UHGV virus genome: UHGV-1345802
Length of the DNA: 14,708 nucleotides
Reading direction: 5' to 3' (one strand)
Source of the DNA: a virus
The position numbers and the translations under genes are program-made. The notes beneath the pieces are model-generated. The model ran no database searches and was not told the origin of the DNA. It saw only the letters and a list, made by a program, of their open reading frames with translations. This document shows, in pieces, positions 281 to 14,142 of the stretch. Numbering within the stretch: position 1 is the first letter of the stretch; each line of letters begins with the position of its first letter.

Positions 281-673
281 CTAATCATTTTTTACTTTTT
301 TGGGCAGCCAGTCGTCCATCTCCAGCCTTACACCCAGCATCGACAGACATCCGTCAATAAATCCTTCAGCAATCTGCATCTCAATTCGTATTGCCTTTTC
401 GCTCTTCTTTCTTGTTCTGGCAATCTGCCTTTTTGATATGCGCAGCAGATAATGAGCTACCAGCAGCGAATACTCGTCCGGTTTTTTCTTCTTCAGGCGC
501 GTAAGGCAGTTTTCGATGATAAGGCCGTCATCATCGCTGCAGGCCGGGCGAGGTTTAGCGGTGGATGGTAAAAGGCCTTTAAATCCAGCAGCTATCGGAG
601 AATAGTCCACCCCGGCGTTACCACTTGCCGCCCATGCCCCCCAGCGTTCGAGAACCATCTGAATATCACGCAT
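281..673 (-). CDS. Q: Late-gene antitermination protein Q (phage 82 / QuuD-like family)
   Basis: Translation MRDIQMVLERWGAWAA... recalled as similar to prophage Q antiterminators (QuuD type). ATG at 673 is preceded by GGAG about 7 nt upstream; the ORF-track start at 688 is a TTG. Stop TAG at 283..281. It is the last gene before the terminator, as in lambdoid late-control regions. Confidence 0.8.
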   Translation of the reverse strand: MRDIQMVLERWGAWAASGNAGVDYSPIAAGFKGLLPSTAKPRPACSDDDGLIIENCLTRLKKKKPDEYSLLVAHYLLRISKRQIARTRKKSEKAIRIEMQIAEGFIDGCLSMLGVRLEMDDWLPKKVKND

Positions 674-690
674 CAACTTTCTCCACAAAA

Positions 691-2220: not shown

Positions 2221-3036
2221 TCAGTGAACGGTATCGAGCAGCTTTAACAGCTCAGGGAATCGGGATTCGAAGAAATGCGGCTGCGTCTCGCGCGGATTTG
2301 CAGGACTGGTGATGTTCTTGCCGAACATGCAGCCTTTCGCTGTCAGCGACCAGAATTTTTTGATGTTGTTAATCGCGGTACGGCTGTATCGTTCGCGTTG
2401 TTCAACGATCCCCAGCTTCGCCATCTGGTGATATGCCTGATTAGCCGTCAGGCGGATACCATACTGCTTCAGCAGTGCACTCAGCGACAGCGTAGGGCGG
2501 CTTGAACCATCTGGCGCATCAGCAGGTGCATCAATGGCATAGATCGGCATAAGTTCAGGAAGACCAGCTACCTTTGATAATTTCTGGTATGCACCAAGTT
2601 TCGAGGAGTTTGACAGATTTAGAGTCTTTGCTGCTGATTCAAGCAGAATGACCCCGGATTTAATTTTGTCGGATGTGGTTTCTTCTGGTGATGAATTATG
2701 AAGCGCATCAAAAGTACGTATCACTTTTAAGCTGAATGCCGGGCTGATCCACATTGCATATGCATAGACCAGCTCTTTACAGACATACGTCCCACCATTG
2801 CGCCCCTGAATGGTGATGACAGGAATACTACGGGAATCTCCCGTAGTTTCTTCTTCCAATAATTCCACAAGAGCCTTCGTTTCAGGACGACGCATAAACT
2901 CGTGAACTTCCAGCGAACGGGAGGAGCGATTCTCACCAGCGGCAAGAAGAGCAGCTTTCTGAAGGTCGTTAAGACAGTAGTTAGATTCGAAGTACTGGCG
3001 CACAGAAACGCCATCAATTACAAGCAACTGATTCAT
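2221..3036 (-). CDS. KilA-N domain DNA-binding protein (antirepressor-like)
   Basis: The N-terminal region ...GGTYVCKELVYAYAMWISPAFSLKVIRTFD is typical of the KilA-N domain. ATG at 3036 is preceded by GGAG at 5-nt spacing; the ORF-track start at 3048 is GTG. Confidence 0.7.
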   Translation of the reverse strand: MNQLLVIDGVSVRQYFESNYCLNDLQKAALLAAGENRSSRSLEVHEFMRRPETKALVELLEEETTGDSRSIPVITIQGRNGGTYVCKELVYAYAMWISPAFSLKVIRTFDALHNSSPEETTSDKIKSGVILLESAAKTLNLSNSSKLGAYQKLSKVAGLPELMPIYAIDAPADAPDGSSRPTLSLSALLKQYGIRLTANQAYHQMAKLGIVEQRERYSRTAINNIKKFWSLTAKGCMFGKNITSPANPRETQPHFFESRFPELLKLLDTVH

Positions 3037-3198
3037 TGGTTTCTCCACAAATTTTTATCCACGAGCGGGACTGCACTCCCTTTTCGTTGATGCAGGATGA
3101 ACTTACTGCGATTTTTAATAGTTATCAAGGATACACTGTTCATAAATACAGTATCTTTAACGAGGTAATACCCAAATTTAGGGTGTTGCTCAATTCCG

Positions 3199-3594
3199 TT
3201 ACCGAGTTGCTAATTTGCAACTCGCTTTTTCGTACTTACTGATAGTGATCTCGACCTTCCCTTCCGGGATAACCGGTCCCCACTCCACCAGCATTCTTTT
3301 CACCTGGCTGTCGTCTTCCCACACACCCGCGTGGGTCAGGGCGTCAAACAGCGCCTTGTTATAGTTGTCCAGATCGCGGATCCGGTTATCCGGAGGAAAC
3401 AACACGATCTCCACTGAAGCAGGTGCCGACGTTGGTTTCGGCAGACGACGTAACTGCTCAACTATTGCTGCACACGCCGCGCTCTGGAATTTTCGCCCCG
3501 CCGCGCTTATCAGGCTCTTACCAGCAAACGCCCCTTTGTTAGGGTGTCGCCAGTACGTGTTCACGCTGGGCGGAAAAGGCAGTATTAGCTTCAT
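3199..3594 (-). CDS. rusA: RusA-family Holliday junction resolvase
   Basis: MKLILPFPPSVNTYWRH...DLDNYNKALFDALTHAGVWEDDSQV matches the conserved RusA pattern (PPS-N-Y-R, DxDN, D-AL). ATGA start/stop overlap with the upstream gene at 3591-3594. Confidence 0.85.
   Translation of the reverse strand: MKLILPFPPSVNTYWRHPNKGAFAGKSLISAAGRKFQSAACAAIVEQLRRLPKPTSAPASVEIVLFPPDNRIRDLDNYNKALFDALTHAGVWEDDSQVKRMLVEWGPVIPEGKVEITISKYEKASCKLATR
3204..3230 (+). terminator. Plus-strand hairpin plus T-run inside the 3' end of rusA (possible antisense or convergent terminator)
   Basis: Stem GAGTTGC (3204-3210) / GCAACTC (3217-3223), loop TAATTT, then GCTTTTT. The T-run is on the plus strand only. Confidence 0.3.
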
Positions 3595-3917
3595 ACTTTC
3601 AGGCCCCTCTCATGTAACCAGTGGGTTGCACGCAGCCTTGCGTTTTCCTCACCGGCAAGCAGTGCGCGGATAATCCCGACCGCCTCGCTGTCGTCGTCCT
3701 TCATCGCAGTATGAAGCGTTATCCCCCGGGCCACGCCACGCTTTATCGTGATGACGCCTTTTTTCTCCAGTGCGCGAAGATGCTCCACCGCTGCATTCAC
3801 CGAACGGTATCCCAGCATGGTTGCCACCTCCTGATTGGTTGGCGGGAAGCCACGTTCTTTCTGATAAGAAATCAGCATATCCAGCACCTGCTGCTGGCAT
3901 TGAGTTAATGTCGTCAT
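3591..3917 (-). CDS. LexA N-terminal (winged-helix) DNA-binding domain protein lacking the S24 peptidase domain
   Basis: QQVLDMLISYQKERGFPPTNQEVATMLGYRSVNAAVEHLRALEKKGVI closely parallels the LexA N-terminal DNA-binding domain. The ORF is only 108 aa with no Ser/Lys peptidase region. ATGA overlap with the methyltransferase stop at 3914-3917. Confidence 0.7.
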   Translation of the reverse strand: MTTLTQCQQQVLDMLISYQKERGFPPTNQEVATMLGYRSVNAAVEHLRALEKKGVITIKRGVARGITLHTAMKDDDSEAVGIIRALLAGEENARLRATHWLHERGLKV

Positions 3918-4567
3918 GCCGCCATCTCCCTGACCAGTTTTTCCGCCTGCTGGCGAGCCTGCGCCAGAAATGCCTCACCACATGCCTCAAGTTCATCGCG
4001 CCCGATGTAGCTGATTGCCGCTCCCTTCCAGGTCTTGTCGAAAACAGCAATAGCACCAGCGAAGAAAGCACCTGTTGGCACCTGCTTTTCGTCTTTCGGG
4101 ATAAACCAGGCTGGCAGTTCAAAACCAATACGCCCGCGAATAAAAGCAATATGATCTGCATCTTCCGGCCACCACACTTCGCTGGTGGCCGCTTTGATCA
4201 GGAAAACATAGCGCCCGCCTTTATCACGCATGGCACTGGCATGCTTCATGATGTAACGCATGCCGGTGATGTATTGTCCCTCATGCTGACTGGCGCGGCT
4301 GTACGGGGGATTACCAAAGGCAGCACCTTTAAGCTCCGCAAGACGTTCTGACCAGTCATGTGCCAGCGCGTTGTCTTCCGCCGTGTAATACGCGGCACAT
4401 TTGGCGTTATCACCGTCAGTAAACAGATCCAGAACAAACGGGCCAAACAGGGTGTTAATTCCCCAGAAAATGTTGTCCGGCGTGCGCCACTGATCGCCCA
4501 CTTCCTTCAGTTCATGGGCTGGTTTGTTCCGTAGTTCCACCAGCGCCTGGCAATATTTATTACTCAT
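3914..4567 (-). CDS. Phage orphan DNA N6-adenine methyltransferase (Dam-like)
   Basis: Contains the NPPY catalytic motif (FGNPPYS). ATG at 4567 overlaps the upstream stop (TAATG) and is preceded by GGGGG; an alternative GTG lies at 4600. No cognate restriction enzyme is nearby. Confidence 0.8.
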   Translation of the reverse strand: MSNKYCQALVELRNKPAHELKEVGDQWRTPDNIFWGINTLFGPFVLDLFTDGDNAKCAAYYTAEDNALAHDWSERLAELKGAAFGNPPYSRASQHEGQYITGMRYIMKHASAMRDKGGRYVFLIKAATSEVWWPEDADHIAFIRGRIGFELPAWFIPKDEKQVPTGAFFAGAIAVFDKTWKGAAISYIGRDELEACGEAFLAQARQQAEKLVREMAA

Positions 4568-5055
4568 TAAGCCCCCACGTAATTCCCTGACAGATACCAC
4601 TCATCACCCGCTACAGCGCGCTTTCTGCTTTTCCGTAAGCACCGCTCACGACGCGCCAGAAAATTGTTTCGTTCTGGCTGGGAGTGGCTTTCACGGAATG
4701 CCGCCATCCACACGGTTGCAGCACGACGGTATAAGCCCCTGGACTCCAGTTCTTCCGCCTGGCGGGTCAGGCACAAAATCACCCGGGGATCGTTAGTGCC
4801 GACATAGAAATTGCGCACAGGTATGGTTTCAAGAACAGGTTGCAGTTTCTCCTCCTGCGATATCTCAGCCTGGTGTGGGAAATGTCTGCGTGTTTTCCCT
4901 TCACAACAGTGAGCCACACGGCCACTCTGACGTAACTTGCTTGCTGACTGCAGAACGCACTGTCGTGAGTAACCAGCAAAAGCATCCGCAATGTCACCTG
5001 AAGTACACCCCGGATGGGCTTCAATGAATTTCTGTACATCGTTCATCAGACTCAT
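4567..5055 (-). CDS. PerC-family-like regulator with an N-terminal extension (Pch-like)
   Basis: The C-terminal segment AEELESRGLYRRAATVWMAAFRE... resembles the PerC signature (LE-KGLWRRAA-W) as recalled. ATG at 5055 lies 2 nt after the replication-gene stop with a GGGGG Shine-Dalgarno; the track start at 5061 is GTG. Confidence 0.45.
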   Translation of the reverse strand: MSLMNDVQKFIEAHPGCTSGDIADAFAGYSRQCVLQSASKLRQSGRVAHCCEGKTRRHFPHQAEISQEEKLQPVLETIPVRNFYVGTNDPRVILCLTRQAEELESRGLYRRAATVWMAAFRESHSQPERNNFLARRERCLRKSRKRAVAGDEWYLSGNYVGA

Positions 5056-5057
5056 GA

Positions 5058-6041
5058 TCACCCCCTGAATCCTGTCGGGATCTGGCTGTAGTCCACGTTG
5101 TCGTAACTGGCTTTGAAGTACGGGTCCTCGCGTCTGGCTGCAGATACCGCAGGAACTTCCCAGGATTCTTCGAAATGACGATCCGGACCAAAGAACGTGA
5201 CAGCCTGTTTCACAAATTGTGTGCCGCTATTGCCCATCGCAGATACCCAGCCCGCGTAGCGTTTCACACCTTCCAGCATGGTTTCGGGGTTTACCCCCTC
5301 GTTCAAACGGGCTTTCCAGGCTTTGAAGGCTGCTGATTTTGAATTGCCACCAGCACGTTTGGGATATTCCTGCCAGGCCTGTTCAAATTCCGGTGAATAT
5401 TCCTGTCGGGCAGAACGCGCTGGCGCAGACGCGTCAGCGGATGCATCAATAGTGTTTTTAGTCTCCGTTGTAATCTCTGTAGTAATCTCTGTATTTGTAT
5501 CAACATTCGGCGTATCCCCTGTTCCGTTATGACGTCGGGGGGTGTTCCGTTTTAACGTAATAGCTGTATCGCTGATTGCATTATTGCTGTTACTTTCTGG
5601 CGAAACAGAAGAAGGTGTGGTGATGGCCGCAATTGCCTGTGGGTTGATCCCGACAAACAAAATATTGCTGCATTTCACCCCATCGAGCATTTCCACCGTG
5701 CGTAAATCCAGAGTAATAAACCCTGCATCGCGCAGACGCTTCAGCGCATCTGCGGTTTCCCTTTTCCCGAAACCAAACTGCTCAGCAAACGCCTGGTAGC
5801 TTCTTTGCAGTTTGTCGCCCTGAAAACGCTTGCGATATCCCAGCAACGCTCCGGTGTGCTCATCCCTGACCTCTGTCGGGCGGTACCAGTAAACGATCTC
5901 TGAAAGCAGAGCGATAGCCGTCGCATCCGGACGCCCACTGGGTAGTCGAATATATTTCCACCAGGTCGCAGGTGTAACATTGCCGGAAATATTAATTTGA
6001 CCAATAGCCATAACTTCCGGTGTGGGGGCGTAACGGCTCAT
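5058..6041 (-). CDS. Phage replication initiator-like protein (O-position; replisome organiser-like)
   Basis: 327 aa; ATG at 6041 preceded by a strong AGGAGG. It sits between the cro/CII-position genes and the nin-like region, has a Thr/Glu-rich linker encoded by a tandem DNA repeat, and a C-terminal region reminiscent of primosomal or replication proteins. Family assignment is from memory only. Confidence 0.6.
   Translation of the reverse strand: MSRYAPTPEVMAIGQINISGNVTPATWWKYIRLPSGRPDATAIALLSEIVYWYRPTEVRDEHTGALLGYRKRFQGDKLQRSYQAFAEQFGFGKRETADALKRLRDAGFITLDLRTVEMLDGVKCSNILFVGINPQAIAAITTPSSVSPESNSNNAISDTAITLKRNTPRRHNGTGDTPNVDTNTEITTEITTETKNTIDASADASAPARSARQEYSPEFEQAWQEYPKRAGGNSKSAAFKAWKARLNEGVNPETMLEGVKRYAGWVSAMGNSGTQFVKQAVTFFGPDRHFEESWEVPAVSAARREDPYFKASYDNVDYSQIPTGFRG
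5470..5493. repeat. Perfect 12-bp tandem repeat (GTAATCTCTGTA x2) inside the replication gene; candidate iteron/ori
   Basis: Read directly from the sequence; encodes TEITTEIT on the minus strand. Degenerate copies flank it (GTTGTAATCTC, GTATTTGTATC). Confidence 0.5.
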
Positions 6042-6337
6042 ACAACCTCCTTCCGCAGCATGAGAATTGTGTAGCCACGCGCAGGTTGTAGTCTGGCTTT
6101 TGCATCAATAGTAAGCGTTGCAATTTTTCGGATATGAAGATAACCAGCTCTTTCCAGTGCCAGGGTTTCCCTGAATATCGCTTGCTTAGAACAACAGCAG
6201 AAATCAGCAAGCACCTGATGATCAATAACTCTCTCGCCTTCACCGTCTGAAGAACCCGACATCAAAACGCGCAACATAATCAGGCGCTGAATCGGGTTAT
6301 CGAAAGCACATCCGCACACAAACTGAAAACAGTTCAC
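6038..6337 (-). CDS. Small HTH / winged-helix DNA-binding protein (replication-associated position)
   Basis: GTG at 6337 overlaps the upstream stop (GTGA) and has GGGAGG 6 nt upstream. ...HQVLADFCCCSKQAIFRETLALERAGYL looks like a helix-turn-helix. Confidence 0.5.
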   Translation of the reverse strand: MNCFQFVCGCAFDNPIQRLIMLRVLMSGSSDGEGERVIDHQVLADFCCCSKQAIFRETLALERAGYLHIRKIATLTIDAKARLQPARGYTILMLRKEVV

Positions 6338-6558
6338 GCCACACCTCCCAGACGCTTAAACATTTTTCCGGAGCAAAAGGCTATAAGCGGCATACTGACG
6401 CGGTAATTACGGCCCAGCGGTTCACAAATCACCTTCTGACATTCACGGTCAACCAGGCTAACACGTAGAACATGCCCTGCAGGCGTGGTGTACCACTGAC
6501 CCGGACGAGGACAACGGAAAGTCTGATTGGTAAAACGTTTGAAAATATTCCGGATCAT
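6334..6558 (-). CDS. Hypothetical small protein (74 aa)
   Basis: ATG at 6558 with GGGGG 5 nt upstream; ATGA overlap with the Rha-gene stop, and its own stop overlaps the next start. Confidence 0.5.
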   Translation of the reverse strand: MIRNIFKRFTNQTFRCPRPGQWYTTPAGHVLRVSLVDRECQKVICEPLGRNYRVSMPLIAFCSGKMFKRLGGVA

Positions 6559-7706
6559 TTGCGCCCCCTTGCCTCTGAAGGGTTCAGCGACAAATTTATG
6601 AGGCAGGCCAGCGCCGAAGCATCATTAATATAGTCATATAAGCTAACAGCCAGCGGAGATTCGGCTTTTGCCAACATAGGATAAAGCTGCTGCAGCCAGA
6701 CCTGATGAATTGATGAAATGTAGGAACAGAGAACGCTGGCGTTATGTGCAACGTCGCTCGGTACAGCAGGCTTTGAAAGCTGTTTCTCCATCTGGTTAAA
6801 GGCATTGATGTATGCCTCTTTGAACTTGGCAGCACGTTTACCCGTGAAACCCATAGCAAGAAACGCAAAACCGTCGCGGGTGATTTGGTAACAAGGGAGT
6901 TTGCGGCCTGATGCGTCGGTGTATTCACTTAACACAAAAATGTGTTCAGTAAATTCAGCGGAACATTCGAGGTTTCTAATTCTATCTAAAACCCGCTCAT
7001 GCCGTTTAGTAAAGTAATTAGCTACTGCAAGAGATGTGGTGACAACGCGACCATTGATAATCGTGATTTCAGGGTGAGATTGGGTTGGGAGAGTAGTCAT
7101 GGTGACAGCCCCTATGTTGAATTCAATGAACTCACCACCAAGGCTTTCCACGACCATATAGGTGGTGAGACGTACAGGGGTGGAAATACCGGTCAACATA
7201 GAACCCGGCCCAACCGAAGTTGGCCCTGCACGCCCCACCATAATTTGGGCGTAACGATGCTCATGACACGAAAAAACCGCATGAGCGCGGTTGTGCTCTA
7301 TATTGAATTTCGGGTTTCCACGCCCGGCACCCGCTTTATAAGGTGCCGGAACAGTGTAACGTCCCGGAATTGCAGAATCAATATGCTGGTGTTCCTTCAC
7401 ACTCAACAAAATCACGCCTGAATTTCCACAAAGGACTAAAGCACTCATGCGGGTAGTCTTTGCGAAGATAGATAACGCGCTGTGTTTCTGGCTCCCAACG
7501 AATAACATGGACATAAAGCCCTCTTCCGTCACGAAACCAGCGGTTAAGTTCCTGCACAACTCGCCCCCCACAGTCAGGTAAAGTTCTCTGTGGTTACTTA
7601 CAGCCAGGTGATTTGGTAATCTGCATTCATGCCGTAACAACAGGTGTTCAGCGACGCTGACCACCAGCTGTTGCGACAAACGGTTATTTGCCGTTAAACT
7701 GTTCAT
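6555..7706 (-). CDS. Rha-family phage regulatory protein with an unexplained ~200-aa N-terminal extension (possible fusion or two genes)
   Basis: Residues from the internal Met at 7100 (MTTLPTQSHPEITIINGRVVTTSLAVANYFTKRHERVLDRIRNL...) look like the Rha (pRha) domain. The frame is open upstream to an ATG at 7706 that overlaps the preceding stop (ATGA). The N-terminal 202 aa match no family I recognise. Confidence 0.6.
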   Translation of the reverse strand: MNSLTANNRLSQQLVVSVAEHLLLRHECRLPNHLAVSNHRELYLTVGGELCRNLTAGFVTEEGFMSMLFVGSQKHSALSIFAKTTRMSALVLCGNSGVILLSVKEHQHIDSAIPGRYTVPAPYKAGAGRGNPKFNIEHNRAHAVFSCHEHRYAQIMVGRAGPTSVGPGSMLTGISTPVRLTTYMVVESLGGEFIEFNIGAVTMTTLPTQSHPEITIINGRVVTTSLAVANYFTKRHERVLDRIRNLECSAEFTEHIFVLSEYTDASGRKLPCYQITRDGFAFLAMGFTGKRAAKFKEAYINAFNQMEKQLSKPAVPSDVAHNASVLCSYISSIHQVWLQQLYPMLAKAESPLAVSLYDYINDASALACLINLSLNPSEARGRK

Positions 7707-8365
7707 GCGTTAGTTTCTCCACAACCAGAAGCAATCGACGCCACGACGCCCGGAGCTGCACACTCGCGGGCGTTACTCTTTTCCGGCGCACAAAAAACAC
7801 GAAATAACAGTGTTAAATGCTCCTGCCACTTCGCCATTACTTGGTAGCTGTTCTCTTCGATTTGCTCACGCTCAGCCTGGTCAATAACTCCATCAGCAGT
7901 TGCCTTGCGTAAGTACTGGGAATGCTTGCCAATCCATTCTATTGACTCCATCAGCCGCTGATTAATGTCACCATTGTCAATGTCATCAATGTCCACCAGC
8001 GGCACAAACACCCCATTACAACGACGCGCTATCGCATCCGTTACATGCCTGGTACCACTGGCATCCTGTAAAACCATGGCCCACTCAAGTGGAAAAATTT
8101 GATCCCCACCGCTACGCAGTCTGTTATGCAATTGATCTTTCGCTGGGGTGATATCATCAGATTTATACAAACCAAGAATTTCCGCTGCTTCCTCATAGCC
8201 ATGAGGTAAATCAGCAATCGTTCTTCGTATTGCTGCCACCAGCCATGCTGGTTGCTTATCAACTTTCCATTCAGGTTCTTTACCCACGGTTAATTCCTCG
8301 TTTCTGTGGTTACGTTTACGCAGTTGAACCGCTAACTTTTTAATAGCACTCAGGTAATCCATCAT
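7703..8365 (-). CDS. CII-position regulatory protein (CII/YdaT-like, tentative)
   Basis: About 220 aa directly downstream of cro, the slot used by lysogeny-establishment regulators. Start is ambiguous (ATG 8365 or 8362, or ATG 8398); either overlaps the cro 3' end. Family is a tentative recollection. Confidence 0.4.
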   Translation of the reverse strand: MMDYLSAIKKLAVQLRKRNHRNEELTVGKEPEWKVDKQPAWLVAAIRRTIADLPHGYEEAAEILGLYKSDDITPAKDQLHNRLRSGGDQIFPLEWAMVLQDASGTRHVTDAIARRCNGVFVPLVDIDDIDNGDINQRLMESIEWIGKHSQYLRKATADGVIDQAEREQIEENSYQVMAKWQEHLTLLFRVFCAPEKSNARECAAPGVVASIASGCGETNA

Positions 8366-8587: not shown

Positions 8588-8649
8588 CCTCTGAAATTCA
8601 GAGGGATAATGCTACTTAAAATAGCAAATTGCAACTACTTAAAATAGAA
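8588..8649. promoter_or_regulatory. oR/pR-pRM divergent control region
   Basis: Candidate pR on the minus strand: -35 TTGCAA (8629-8634), 17-nt spacer, -10 CATTAT (complement of 8606-8611). Repeated CTACTTAAAATAG at 8612-8624 and 8635-8647. A 17-bp perfect palindrome CCTCTGAAATTCAGAGG (8588-8604) lies between the -10 and the cro Shine-Dalgarno. Confidence 0.55.
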
Positions 8650-9390
8650 ATGACTAGCGCGTGCGATGTGAGTAATCTTCTACCTATGGTAGAAGAACAG
8701 AAGTATCCAGATTTCGCCAAGAGACTAAACGAATTGATGACAATCAAAGGAATCTCTGTCACTCAACTCAAAAGTCTTGTGGGCGTTACATATGAAATGG
8801 CTCGTCGATACACAATCGGCGCAGCGAAGCCACGTGTCTCTGTCATGAGTAAACTTGCGTTGGCTCTTGGAGTATCAGCTTCATATCTAGAATATGGTGT
8901 TGGAGATAGAGAGGAATGTAAGGAAATGGCAAGCATCCCCAATCCAACAAAGCCCGATGTATACAGGATAGAAGTTTTGGATCTTAGCGTTAGCGCAGGA
9001 CCTGGGACCTATATGCTTTCAGACTATGTTGATGTGCTCTACGCCATTGAGTTCACAACTGAACATGCCCGTTCTCTTTTCGGAAACCGTTCTCAGAATG
9101 ATATAAAAGTTATGACGGTAAATGGAGATAGTATGTCCCCAACTCTTGTTTCCGGGGATCGATTGTTTGTCGACATTTCCGTTCGCCACTTCCAGACTGA
9201 TGGAGTTTACTCTTTCGTTTACGGTAAGACTTTCCATGTTAAACGTCTACAAATGCAAGGCAACAAACTAGCTGTTCTTTCGGATAACCCCGCCTATGAG
9301 AAATGGTACATTGATGAGAAGTCGCAAGATCAGCTTTATGTTATGGGTAAGGCACTGATTCATGAGTCGATTAAATATAATCGACTTTAA
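8650..9390 (+). CDS. cI: cI-type prophage repressor (HTH_XRE + S24 LexA-like peptidase)
   Basis: N-terminal HTH (LNELMTIKGISVTQLKSLVGVTYEMARRY) and a C-terminal S24 domain with GDSMSPTL and a downstream Lys (HVKRLQ). The start has no Shine-Dalgarno (ATG 8650 or ATG 8686; track start TTG 8629), consistent with a leaderless cI message. Confidence 0.85.
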   Translation: MTSACDVSNLLPMVEEQKYPDFAKRLNELMTIKGISVTQLKSLVGVTYEMARRYTIGAAKPRVSVMSKLALALGVSASYLEYGVGDREECKEMASIPNPTKPDVYRIEVLDLSVSAGPGTYMLSDYVDVLYAIEFTTEHARSLFGNRSQNDIKVMTVNGDSMSPTLVSGDRLFVDISVRHFQTDGVYSFVYGKTFHVKRLQMQGNKLAVLSDNPAYEKWYIDEKSQDQLYVMGKALIHESIKYNRL

Positions 9391-9624
9391 TTAGGCATCT
9401 AGCAATCGTTAAAGCAAACGAGCACAGATGATAAAAGATAAGGATAGAAAATCTTTATACAAATTTTATTTGGCACATTGGTCCATAAAAATGGATTAAC
9501 ACTGAGCTGTTACCCTAAGTAAGAAAAGATAAAGACCATATGTTATCTTTGGGTGCGTTACTAACACAAAAAAAACCAAAATAAAACATAAATAATAGAC
9601 AATTCTATACAACAGGATACGATA

Positions 9625-10710
9625 ATGATTAATGAACGTACTGAAGCGACAGATGGGGTAGCAGATATGATTTCCACCAATACAAAATATTTAGTATGGA
9701 ACAACAAAGGTGGTGTAGGAAAAACTTTTCTTACATATAATCTTGCCGTTGAGTTTGCTATATCTCATCCGGATCAAGATGTTGTGGTTATTGACTCATG
9801 CCCTCAATCAAACGTTTCAGAAATTATTCTTGGTGGCAATGGTACCGGGGAAGAAAATCTAAATAAATTGCGAGACAGAAATGTTACAATCGCAGGTTAT
9901 ATCAAGGAGCGTTTTAGCAAATCTCCTTTGTCTCGTTTAGGAAATGAATCTTCTTACTTTGTACGAGCCCATGATGTTAATGCAAAAATGCCAGAGAACT
10001 TATATATTCTTCCTGGTGATGTCGATCTTGATATCTGTTCACGCTTAATATCTCACATTGGCTCATCCCCAGTAAAAGAAGCATGGAAGAAAAGCCGATC
10101 TTTGCTGGTAGATCTAATAGCATCTTTTGAAGCCGATAAAAACATTTCTGACAGAGCAAAAACATTTTTTATTGATTGTAATCCAAGTTTTGCCAGCTAC
10201 ACAGAATTGGGAGTAGTCGCGGCAAATAGAATAATTATCCCTTGCACTGCCGATGCTGCATCAATTCGCGGAATAAAAAACCTTGTTAAACTTATTTATG
10301 GAGTGTCTATTGACAAGTCAGAACAAGATGAAATGTTCTTAGATTTCAACAAAGAAGCAAAGCAAAACCTTATCGAACTACCTGAACTACACCTTTTCGT
10401 ACAAAACCGCTCAAGAACTAATGAAAGTGATGCAGCAAAAGCATTCAAATCACATGCAGAAGAGATCAAAAGAATCACGGATGACCTGTTAAATACACAT
10501 CCTCATCTGTTCACAAATGTGGCTACTTTCGAGAGAGTTCAAAATGTCAAAGATGGTAATACTCTTGCAGCAATAATAAACCATGAGGGATGCCCTTTAA
10601 GTAGGCTGCAGCATAAGAGTTACACTATCTATGGTATGGCGACCCAAGCTAATAGAGCACAAATTGAAGCACTAGAATCTGATGTTTCAACAGTAGTCAA
10701 GTGTCTGTAA
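9625..10710 (+). CDS. Orphan ParA/MinD-family P-loop ATPase in the rex-equivalent position (candidate superinfection-exclusion or defence moron)
   Basis: Deviant Walker A NNKGGVGKT, then IDSCPQSN and FFIDCNPSF...IIIPCTADAASIRG matching ParA/Soj motifs; 361 aa with a long C-terminal extension. The gene and flanks are visibly AT-rich, and no ParB-like partner was seen. ATG at 9625 (AGGAT upstream); alternative ATG at 9670. Confidence 0.75.
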   Translation: MINERTEATDGVADMISTNTKYLVWNNKGGVGKTFLTYNLAVEFAISHPDQDVVVIDSCPQSNVSEIILGGNGTGEENLNKLRDRNVTIAGYIKERFSKSPLSRLGNESSYFVRAHDVNAKMPENLYILPGDVDLDICSRLISHIGSSPVKEAWKKSRSLLVDLIASFEADKNISDRAKTFFIDCNPSFASYTELGVVAANRIIIPCTADAASIRGIKNLVKLIYGVSIDKSEQDEMFLDFNKEAKQNLIELPELHLFVQNRSRTNESDAAKAFKSHAEEIKRITDDLLNTHPHLFTNVATFERVQNVKDGNTLAAIINHEGCPLSRLQHKSYTIYGMATQANRAQIEALESDVSTVVKCL

Positions 10711-13540: not shown

Positions 13541-14142
13541 ATGTTTTCGAAATGGAAGGGTTTCTTCGCGGGAAATGTGTACCACGAGATCTGAAAGTGA
13601 ATGAAACAAATGCTGAATATCTGGTGCGTAAATTTGCTGAAGCGGAGGCCAAGATTTTGGCTCTGTCCGAAGACCAACAGAAAGCGATTGAGTCAATTAA
13701 GCAGGCTGATGCAGCTGTTAAGTTGGCACACGAGAAGTTTTCGGCGCTGGCGGCGGAGAATGCGGGGCTGAAACACGCAATGGCCGTAACTCTTGAGCAT
13801 GTGTCGGTCACGGATGCAGGGCAGGCTGGTGTTGCTGCAATGATTATCAACGATGCCCTGCACCACAGCGAAACTCCAGCCACCGATGCTTTCCTGGCTG
13901 AAATTCGTGCGGAAGCACGCAACGAGGGGATTAACTATACCGCAAGCCGTCTTGCTGCTGCTTTCAATCACGGATTTATCAATAAGTCTTTACGTGAAGT
14001 TTTCGACGTTACACGCATGATTCTGTCAGCGAAAGAAGAGTTGGCTAATGAACCACACCCGATTGATGGCCTGTCCGGTGAATATGCGGAGAAATCCCTA
14101 GAAGAATGGGCGGAACAGATTCGCAAAGGAGGCAACCAGTGA
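13531..14142 (+). CDS. Hypothetical phage protein (about 200 aa), Ala/Glu-rich and helical
   Basis: ATG at 13531 (GGAG upstream), or ATG at 13537 overlapping the preceding stop (ATGA). Confidence 0.5.
   Translation: MRMNVFEMEGFLRGKCVPRDLKVNETNAEYLVRKFAEAEAKILALSEDQQKAIESIKQADAAVKLAHEKFSALAAENAGLKHAMAVTLEHVSVTDAGQAGVAAMIINDALHHSETPATDAFLAEIRAEARNEGINYTASRLAAAFNHGFINKSLREVFDVTRMILSAKEELANEPHPIDGLSGEYAEKSLEEWAEQIRKGGNQ

Follow-up and report, generated by a model that had tools for sequence, protein, structure and literature searches.

A LexA-like protein without the autocleavage domain in the nin region of lambdoid phages and its association with SOS boxes

What would a phage do with the DNA-binding half of LexA once the half that answers to RecA has been left out? 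The question is raised by a short gene in a 14,708-nt stretch of UHGV virus genome UHGV-1345802, given as one strand; this whole stretch is referred to here as the window, and positions without a locus name are positions in it. The original prediction for the gene had described its product as a close copy of the LexA N-terminal domain that stops at 108 amino acids (aa) and that could occupy SOS boxes without being inactivated by RecA. The reading favoured by the present analysis, held tentatively and as possible more than probable, is that of a stable, RecA-insensitive LexA surrogate, probably dimeric, which acts at SOS-type operators. The gene and the parts of its product, with the predicted elements taken from an AlphaFold (AF2) model, are the following:

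3591..3917, minus strand: LexA-like gene, an open reading frame (ORF) call with an ATG start, encoding a 12-kDa protein of 108 aa
3708..3917, minus strand: residues 1–70, predicted LexA-type winged helix-turn-helix (wHTH), with helices at 6–22, 28–35 and 40–52 and strands at 56–58 and 66–68
3762..3800, minus strand: residues 40–52 (VNAAVEHLRALEK), recognition helix by alignment with E. coli LexA
3609..3701, minus strand: residues 73–103, predicted family-specific helical hairpin (helices 73–88 and 93–103), with a predicted local distance difference test score (pLDDT) of about 90 per block

The N-terminal part of the protein was matched by Pfam LexA_DNA_bind (PF01726; residues 1–65, E = 2.9e-19, 69 bits against a cutoff of 23.7), and a sequence search of the PDB returned the E. 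coli LexA N-terminal domain (E = 6e-16), with the numbering in register up to residue 70. The AF2 model, built on a 13-sequence family alignment, reached a pLDDT of 84 and has the topology of LexA. With Foldseek, its first 67–69 residues superposed on the LexA–DNA complex 3JSO with a root-mean-square deviation (rmsd) of 0.9–1.0 Å at 50% identity, and the fold is shared with the E. coli domain as represented by 1LEA and 3JSO (rmsd about 1 Å). The homology claimed in the original prediction stands, while the closeness of the copy was overstated, the identity to E. coli LexA being about 50% over residues 2–70.

The protease half of LexA is missing, as had been proposed. No Pfam match to the Peptidase_S24 domain was found in the 108-aa protein, and the NCBIfam lexA equivalog TIGR00498 scored 70.4 bits, under its cutoff of 110.95, with model positions 1–91 of 203 covered. 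HMMER aligned A88–G89 with the LexA cleavage site Ala84–Gly85, at the end of a predicted helix, and Ala-Gly is retained at this position in about three of 12 family members. Because the S24 domain is absent, and because the Ala-Gly dipeptide is kept by a minority only and is predicted to be helical, RecA-stimulated self-cleavage is not expected on sequence and model. A role of A88–G89 in trans-cleavage or as a pseudo-substrate was considered and rejected, the dipeptide being unconserved in the family and its segment predicted helical. Unlike E. coli LexA, the window protein lacks both the S24 domain for proteolysis and dimerisation and a conserved cleavage site, carries Val44 and ends in a helical hairpin of 35 residues. 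Predicted viral structures include many stand-alone LexA-domain proteins. A separate observation from the representative search is that several proteins of 140–350 aa (among them P0132, P0133, P0147 and P0155) contain a tandem pair of LexA DNA-binding-domain stretches, which may be another route to a two-headed LexA-type binder without an S24 domain.

The hairpin qualifies the statement that the protein stops at 108 aa: the length is right, but there is no plain stop after the LexA domain. A low-confidence linker in the AF2 model (residues 71–74) leads from the wHTH into the conserved two-helix tail, whose consensus is EAVxxIRALLAxExxARxRAxxxLxxxG and in which A97 and L101 are invariant in the family. 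Tail and overall architecture are kept in relatives of 106–135 aa that are only 39–52% identical to the window protein, and sequence and model together indicate that the protein is not simply a truncation, a conserved tail replacing the LexA C-terminal domain. Searches for the homology of the tail gave zero PDB sequence matches, and the fold search matched nothing beyond the wHTH; a weak Pfam NIL match (E = 0.038) was disregarded. LexA needs its C-terminal domain to dimerise and to bind operators tightly, and C-terminal helices serve dimerisation in many winged-helix repressors; by this analogy the tail is probably a dimerisation module.

With respect to DNA recognition, S39, N41, A42, E44 and E45 of E. 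coli LexA have been implicated in contacting the operator (Knegtel et al., as cited in PMC13416735). Four of these five, S39, N41, A42 and E45, are retained in the window protein, position 44 being Val, and the wing residues R64 and G65 of LexA are retained as well.

The scan for CTGT-N8-ACAG suggested with the original prediction was run on the window, with sites scored by a heterology index (HI) and those with HI ≤ 8 regarded as strong boxes. Two exact matches were found, one of which is a strong box:

3134–3153, minus strand: SOS box reading TACTGTATTTATGAACAGTG, exact CTGT-N8-ACAG, HI 4.7/5.8

Any site with HI ≤ 8 occurred in only 3% of shuffled windows. The second match, at 7588–7603, has HI > 15 and poor flanks and was treated as a probable chance occurrence. 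The strong box lies 440 bp downstream of the LexA-like gene, 45 nt past the stop codon of the RusA resolvase gene and 97 nt ahead of the start of a KilA-N domain gene, and on its sequence is a candidate binding site for host LexA as well as for the LexA-like protein. By eye, 8 of 12 hexamer positions match a promoter on each strand at the box. The plus strand past the box (3150–3240) is predicted to fold into two hairpins (z = -4.6), of which the second, at 3203–3224, resembles a terminator stem and leads into a T run, so that the box may control either the KilA-N gene, a putative SOS-controlled phage function, or an antisense RNA of about 75 nt over the 3' end of rusA. Rfam returned no known RNA family at the box or the hairpins. 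The scan found no SOS box 5' of the LexA-like gene in the window, where the gene sits in the early-right operon.

Whether such boxes accompany the gene more widely was assessed in related loci (numbered with L) collected from IMG/VR, the gene-anchored loci being scanned within ±10 kb; lambdoid loci that lack a LexA-like gene, collected around another type of RusA, served as controls. At least one strong box was present in 47 of the 80 gene-anchored loci (66 boxes in 1,302 kb, 0.051 per kb) and in 4 of 67 control loci (0.0034 per kb over 1,177 kb), which makes the density of strong boxes about 15 times higher in gene-carrying than in control lambdoid loci. Among loci of at least 12 kb the counts were 39/66 versus 4/67, and among loci anchored on the Q gene of the window a box occurred in 16/21 with the LexA-like gene versus 2/37 without it (locus-level Fisher tests, p = 1e-11 and p = 3e-8, respectively).

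The boxes fall in three unrelated modules, namely 5' of KilA-N, in the linker of cI and at the 5' end of a late methylase gene. A 100%-identical KilA-N allele was always preceded by the box (43 loci). The mEp460-type cI gene has a near-consensus box in its linker-coding part in all 61 loci with this allele, 58 of which carry the LexA-like gene (Dam 47/61, RusA 56/61), and the spacing from cI to the LexA-like gene takes at least ten values among them. The late gene (orf48 in SfV) lies between Q and the lysis genes and encodes a DPPY DNA methyltransferase, with an SOS box at codons 3–9; the box has a LexA-compatible form in three alleles, one of them with diverged N-terminal residues. Examples of the latter two modules are:

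L008, 5546–5565, minus strand: cI-linker box within the cI ORF 5082–5774, HI 2.4
L003, 836–855: cI-linker box, HI 1.7
L005 (phage SfV), 34170–34189: DPPY methylase box
L329, 12739–12758: DPPY methylase box

In L003, where the cI homologue is about 70% identical and the LexA-like protein 48% identical, the arms of the box and its position in the linker are the same, but not the spacer or the residues encoded there. Since the arms are kept under these circumstances, the comparison suggests selection on the DNA site itself.

More distant lineages place the gene itself behind an SOS box. A subfamily with an N-terminal extension (39–42% identity) sits in an SOS-boxed operon in four loci, in the order SOS box, optional DinI or RecA-C-terminal-like ORF, an ORF of 75–82 aa (PHROG 1813), LexA-like gene, an ORF of 66–67 aa, RusA, DUF968 and Q:

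L325, operon 9560–10408: box ACCTGTACATTCATACAGTA, HI 6.0
L329, operon 9561–10357: box CACTGTATATATAAACAGTA, HI 1.8
L409, operon 513–1518: box TACTGTATAAATAAACAGTA, HI 1.4, with a DinI homologue between box and LexA-like gene
L410, operon 4907–6070: box TACTGTATAAAAATACAGTT plus an overlapping weaker site, HI 1.7, with a RecA-C-terminal-like ORF between box and LexA-like gene

Exceptions to this order are that the 66–67 aa ORF is not annotated in L329, that RusA is absent in L409 and that the L410 contig ends before any Q. The four boxes are near-consensus and each is different in sequence; in L325 and L329 the box is preceded by an intrinsic-terminator-like hairpin and promoter-like hexamers. 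In total, five of nine distant lineages (L003, L325, L329, L409 and L410) have strong boxes, with P about 8e-5 at a base rate of 6%. To judge from these sites, the LexA-like gene of the four operons would belong to the host LexA regulon, an arrangement that fits equally well with negative feedback by an uncleavable surrogate and with a gp6-like effector made after SOS induction (see below). The operons look, by their gene content, like SOS-modulation cassettes; no counterpart of the PHROG 1813 ORF, of DinI or of the RecA-C-terminal-like ORF was found in the window. Cargo genes were noted next to two of the operons, with AcrVA2-like and Cas1-like ORFs at 13794–15390 of L329 and a bacterial RNase-A-like toxin with a CdiI-like immunity gene at 7863–9232 of L325.

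The only characterised phage LexA-domain protein, and the characterised protein closest to the window protein, is gp6 of GIL01. This truncated LexA homologue of a Bacillus thuringiensis tectivirus is expressed from a LexA-repressed promoter, binds a palindrome of its own, GaCACAnnTGTGaC, and acts as an activator of the late promoter P3 (PMC6182141). It has in common with the window protein that a LexA DNA-binding domain without the cleavage domain is encoded by a phage, and its promoter is LexA-repressed, as those of the distant members of the LexA-like family appear to be, so that both would belong to SOS-wired phage circuits. The two differ in that gp6 is described as ending after the wing, whereas the LexA-like family adds its conserved two-helix tail, and in their setting, a Bacillus tectivirus in one case and lambdoid phages of Gram-negative hosts, with late genes under Q, in the other.

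Other known systems resemble single aspects of the proposal. Ind- mutants of LexA (G85D, S119A; 1JHF, 1JHH) are uncleavable and block SOS induction dominantly; with the DNA specificity of LexA, they are a laboratory analogue of the proposed mechanism, although they are full-length proteins with native specificity and dimerisation, both of which are only predicted for the window protein. LexA-controlled antirepressor or induction modules are represented by Tum of coliphage 186, AntC of N15 and the Gifsy antirepressors, and also by lambda oop/pO, and the window is like these in having an SOS box inside a prophage before an early or nin accessory gene, here 3134–3153 before KilA-N; to our knowledge, no LexA paralogue of their own has been described for any of the 186 Tum, N15 AntC, Gifsy or lambda oop/pO systems. 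DinI and PsiB, finally, are SOS dampers of mobile elements, and the DinI homologue of L409 shares an SOS-boxed operon with the LexA-like gene. These proteins act on RecA filaments, whereas the LexA-like protein would act on DNA.

On the favoured reading, the hairpin tail, standing in place of the RecA-responsive, self-cleaving and dimerising domain, would most likely yield a stable dimer. Made with the delayed-early genes between replication and Q, the protein would appear on prophage derepression or infection and could then bind at SOS-type operators (CTGT-N8-ACAG or a sequence close to it) left free by host LexA once DNA has been damaged. Repression would thereby be re-imposed in a form that RecA could not relieve. 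The SOS-controlled units of the phage itself would be the first targets, in the window the box before KilA-N and in relatives the boxes inside cI, at the late methylase gene or before the operon of the LexA-like gene; beyond these, the protein might also act on host SOS genes.

The neighbourhood of the gene is a lambdoid early-right/nin region, all on the minus strand, as a Pfam search of the window showed. The order there is cro-like and cII-like genes, a Rha/Ash module, an O-like replication gene, a PerC/YfdN-like gene, Dam, the LexA-like gene, RusA, KilA-N, DUF968 and Q, with the following members placed by coordinates, together with the divergent repressor gene:

3914–4600, minus strand: Dam-family DNA adenine methyltransferase, upstream neighbour (PF05869, E = 6e-45)
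3199–3594, minus strand: RusA Holliday-junction resolvase, downstream neighbour (PF05866)
2221–3036, minus strand: KilA-N domain gene (Pfam KilA-N, E = 1.3e-15; PHROG 129, 'transcriptional regulator', E = 4e-109)
281–688, minus strand: Q (PF06530)
8629–9390, divergent: S24-type cI

The nin-like setting named in the original prediction is borne out by the Dam, RusA and Q neighbours and the O-like replication gene upstream, and so is the coupling between methyltransferase and RusA. The Dam stop and the LexA-like start share a 4-nt ATGA (plus-strand tcat at 3914–3917), as do the LexA-like stop and the RusA start (tcat at 3591–3594), and GGAG sits 8 nt 5' of the LexA-like start codon; by these overlaps the gene is translationally coupled to both Dam and RusA. 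The best-kept synteny across distant lineages is LexA-like then RusA, usually with overlapping stop and start codons, and a methylase also stands 5' of the gene in the distant relatives L003, L004, L328 and L329, though it is absent in SfIV and other loci. In L092, L094, L178 and L258 the Dam and RusA matches abut exactly, with no LexA-like gene between them. As these phages, which have the same boxes, join Dam directly to RusA, the gene appears from the alignments to be an optional cassette.

Two further observations concern other parts of the window. Rfam placed a C4 antisense RNA at 7158–7245 (minus strand, 82 bits) and isrK at 7270–7346 (minus strand, 62 bits), both within a 383-aa ORF at 6555–7706 with Ash and Rha domains; because of these matches the ORF is probably over-extended, and the region 7158–7346 looks like an antirepressor control module of the P1/P7-immI or Gifsy-1 IsrK type. 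On the lysogenic strand, a 361-aa ParA/MinD-like ATPase ORF (9625–10710, plus strand) adjoins the cI-like repressor gene and may be a moron, defence or partition gene.

The LexA-like gene is far from rare. It was found in 2,233 of 5,426 complete E. coli genomes (about 41%), O104:H4 among them, mostly at 95–99% identity and in up to four copies per genome, and is named 'LexA family transcriptional regulator' by PGAP. The protein matched PHROG 362 ('transcriptional repressor') over its full length (residues 1–108 against profile positions 1–106 of 106, E = 1.2e-59). Copies that are 95–100% identical are annotated in SfV (orf42, 'unknown'), SfII, SfIV, mEp460, the cdtI phage and Stx2a, Stx2c and Stx2k phages, nearly always between Dam and RusA. 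A survey of Stx phages lists the gene as a pham, its function not being tested there (PMC8136144), and no functional study of the enterobacterial LexA-like family was found in the literature. The gene is already catalogued and very common, and apparently unstudied.

Several observations weigh against a surrogate that binds the boxes of host LexA. The HI matrix was compiled for the present analysis from a set of 30 E. coli SOS boxes, which themselves score between 1.0 and 9.9, and a consensus promoter scan of 2900–4700 passed no site, and none at the box of the window. The loci are not independent: clustered by shared k-mers, boxes were present in 5 of 12 clusters versus 2 of 17 (p = 0.09), common descent and physical linkage both confound the association, and much of the KilA-N association is plain linkage through RusA. 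The same boxes occur without a LexA-like gene in the four loci that join Dam to RusA, and L004, L322, L328 and L411 have zero strong boxes. Glu44, present in 11 of 12 full-length S24-containing LexA representatives from the same search, is never kept in the family, where position 44 is V, A, T, F, L or Y in every aligned member. Distant members differ at positions 41 and 45 as well (SSNAVLLHLR, SQNTVFIHLR and SPYAAYEHLR), and the boxes in their phages are canonical, a pairing that would fit control of the gene by host LexA better than binding of the same boxes by the LexA-like protein. Loss at position 44 together with variation at 41 and 45 is the main argument against an identical specificity across the family.

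Such changes are what would be expected of diversified specificity, and they favour a regulator of the gp6 type, the main rival, which we regard as only slightly less likely than the surrogate. Here a LexA-derived protein, made after the SOS signal or early in lytic growth, would recognise an operator of its own, distinct from the SOS box, and activate or repress phage genes while leaving the host SOS regulon untouched. GIL01 gp6, with its own palindrome and P3, sets the precedent (PMC6182141), the box before the operon in four distant lineages by itself shows only control by host LexA, and an optional cassette that is absent from some phages with the same boxes would be compatible with this view. 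However, an alternative conserved palindrome was not identified: a scan for other palindromes (5-mer arms, spacers of 0–14) enriched in gene loci over controls gave only sequences shared by descent and was uninformative. The window protein, moreover, is still 50% identical to LexA and has four of the five contact residues, there is no evident need for a late activator where late genes are under Q antitermination, and the co-occurrence of boxes in three unrelated modules would require another explanation.

An accessory DNA-binding factor for RusA, for the methylase, or for replication or recombination intermediates, with no part in transcription, seems quite improbable. It would account for the conserved order and overlapping codons of the LexA-like and RusA genes and for the DNA methylase that is often found 5' of them, but nin regions are dense with translationally coupled genes that have nothing to do with one another, RusA is widespread without the gene (67 control loci), Dam joins RusA directly in some phages and L409 carries the gene without RusA. 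RusA also acts as a homodimer without partners. That the gene is a decaying remnant of a captured lexA with no present function is extremely improbable: it is dispensable in some phages, yet it is intact in 2,223 of the 5,426 E. coli genomes at mostly 95–99% identity, keeps its length, fold and family-specific tail in 39–50% identical relatives of other lineages, and has a good ribosome-binding site in addition to its translational coupling.

Should the LexA-like protein indeed recognise SOS boxes, a substantial fraction of E. coli strains would carry a repressor that RecA cannot remove, which would bear on strain differences in SOS induction by antibiotics, mutagenesis, prophage cross-talk and the induction of Shiga-toxin phages. 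If it proves to have its own operator, it would be a second independent case, after GIL01 gp6, of a LexA DNA-binding domain serving as a private phage regulator downstream of SOS. The broadest interpretation, which we put forward as unlikely on present evidence, is that RecA-proof LexA surrogates in the prophages of about 40% of complete E. coli genomes constitute a switch, encoded by phages, that turns off SOS-box promoters. Such proteins, produced in early lytic growth or, in the distant lineages, under SOS control and there sometimes together with DinI, would re-close operators after host LexA has been destroyed. They would time the phage's KilA-N gene, cI box and late methylase and could shut down host mutagenesis, SOS toxins and competing LexA-controlled prophages or colicins, and strains would then differ in their SOS dynamics according to their prophage content.

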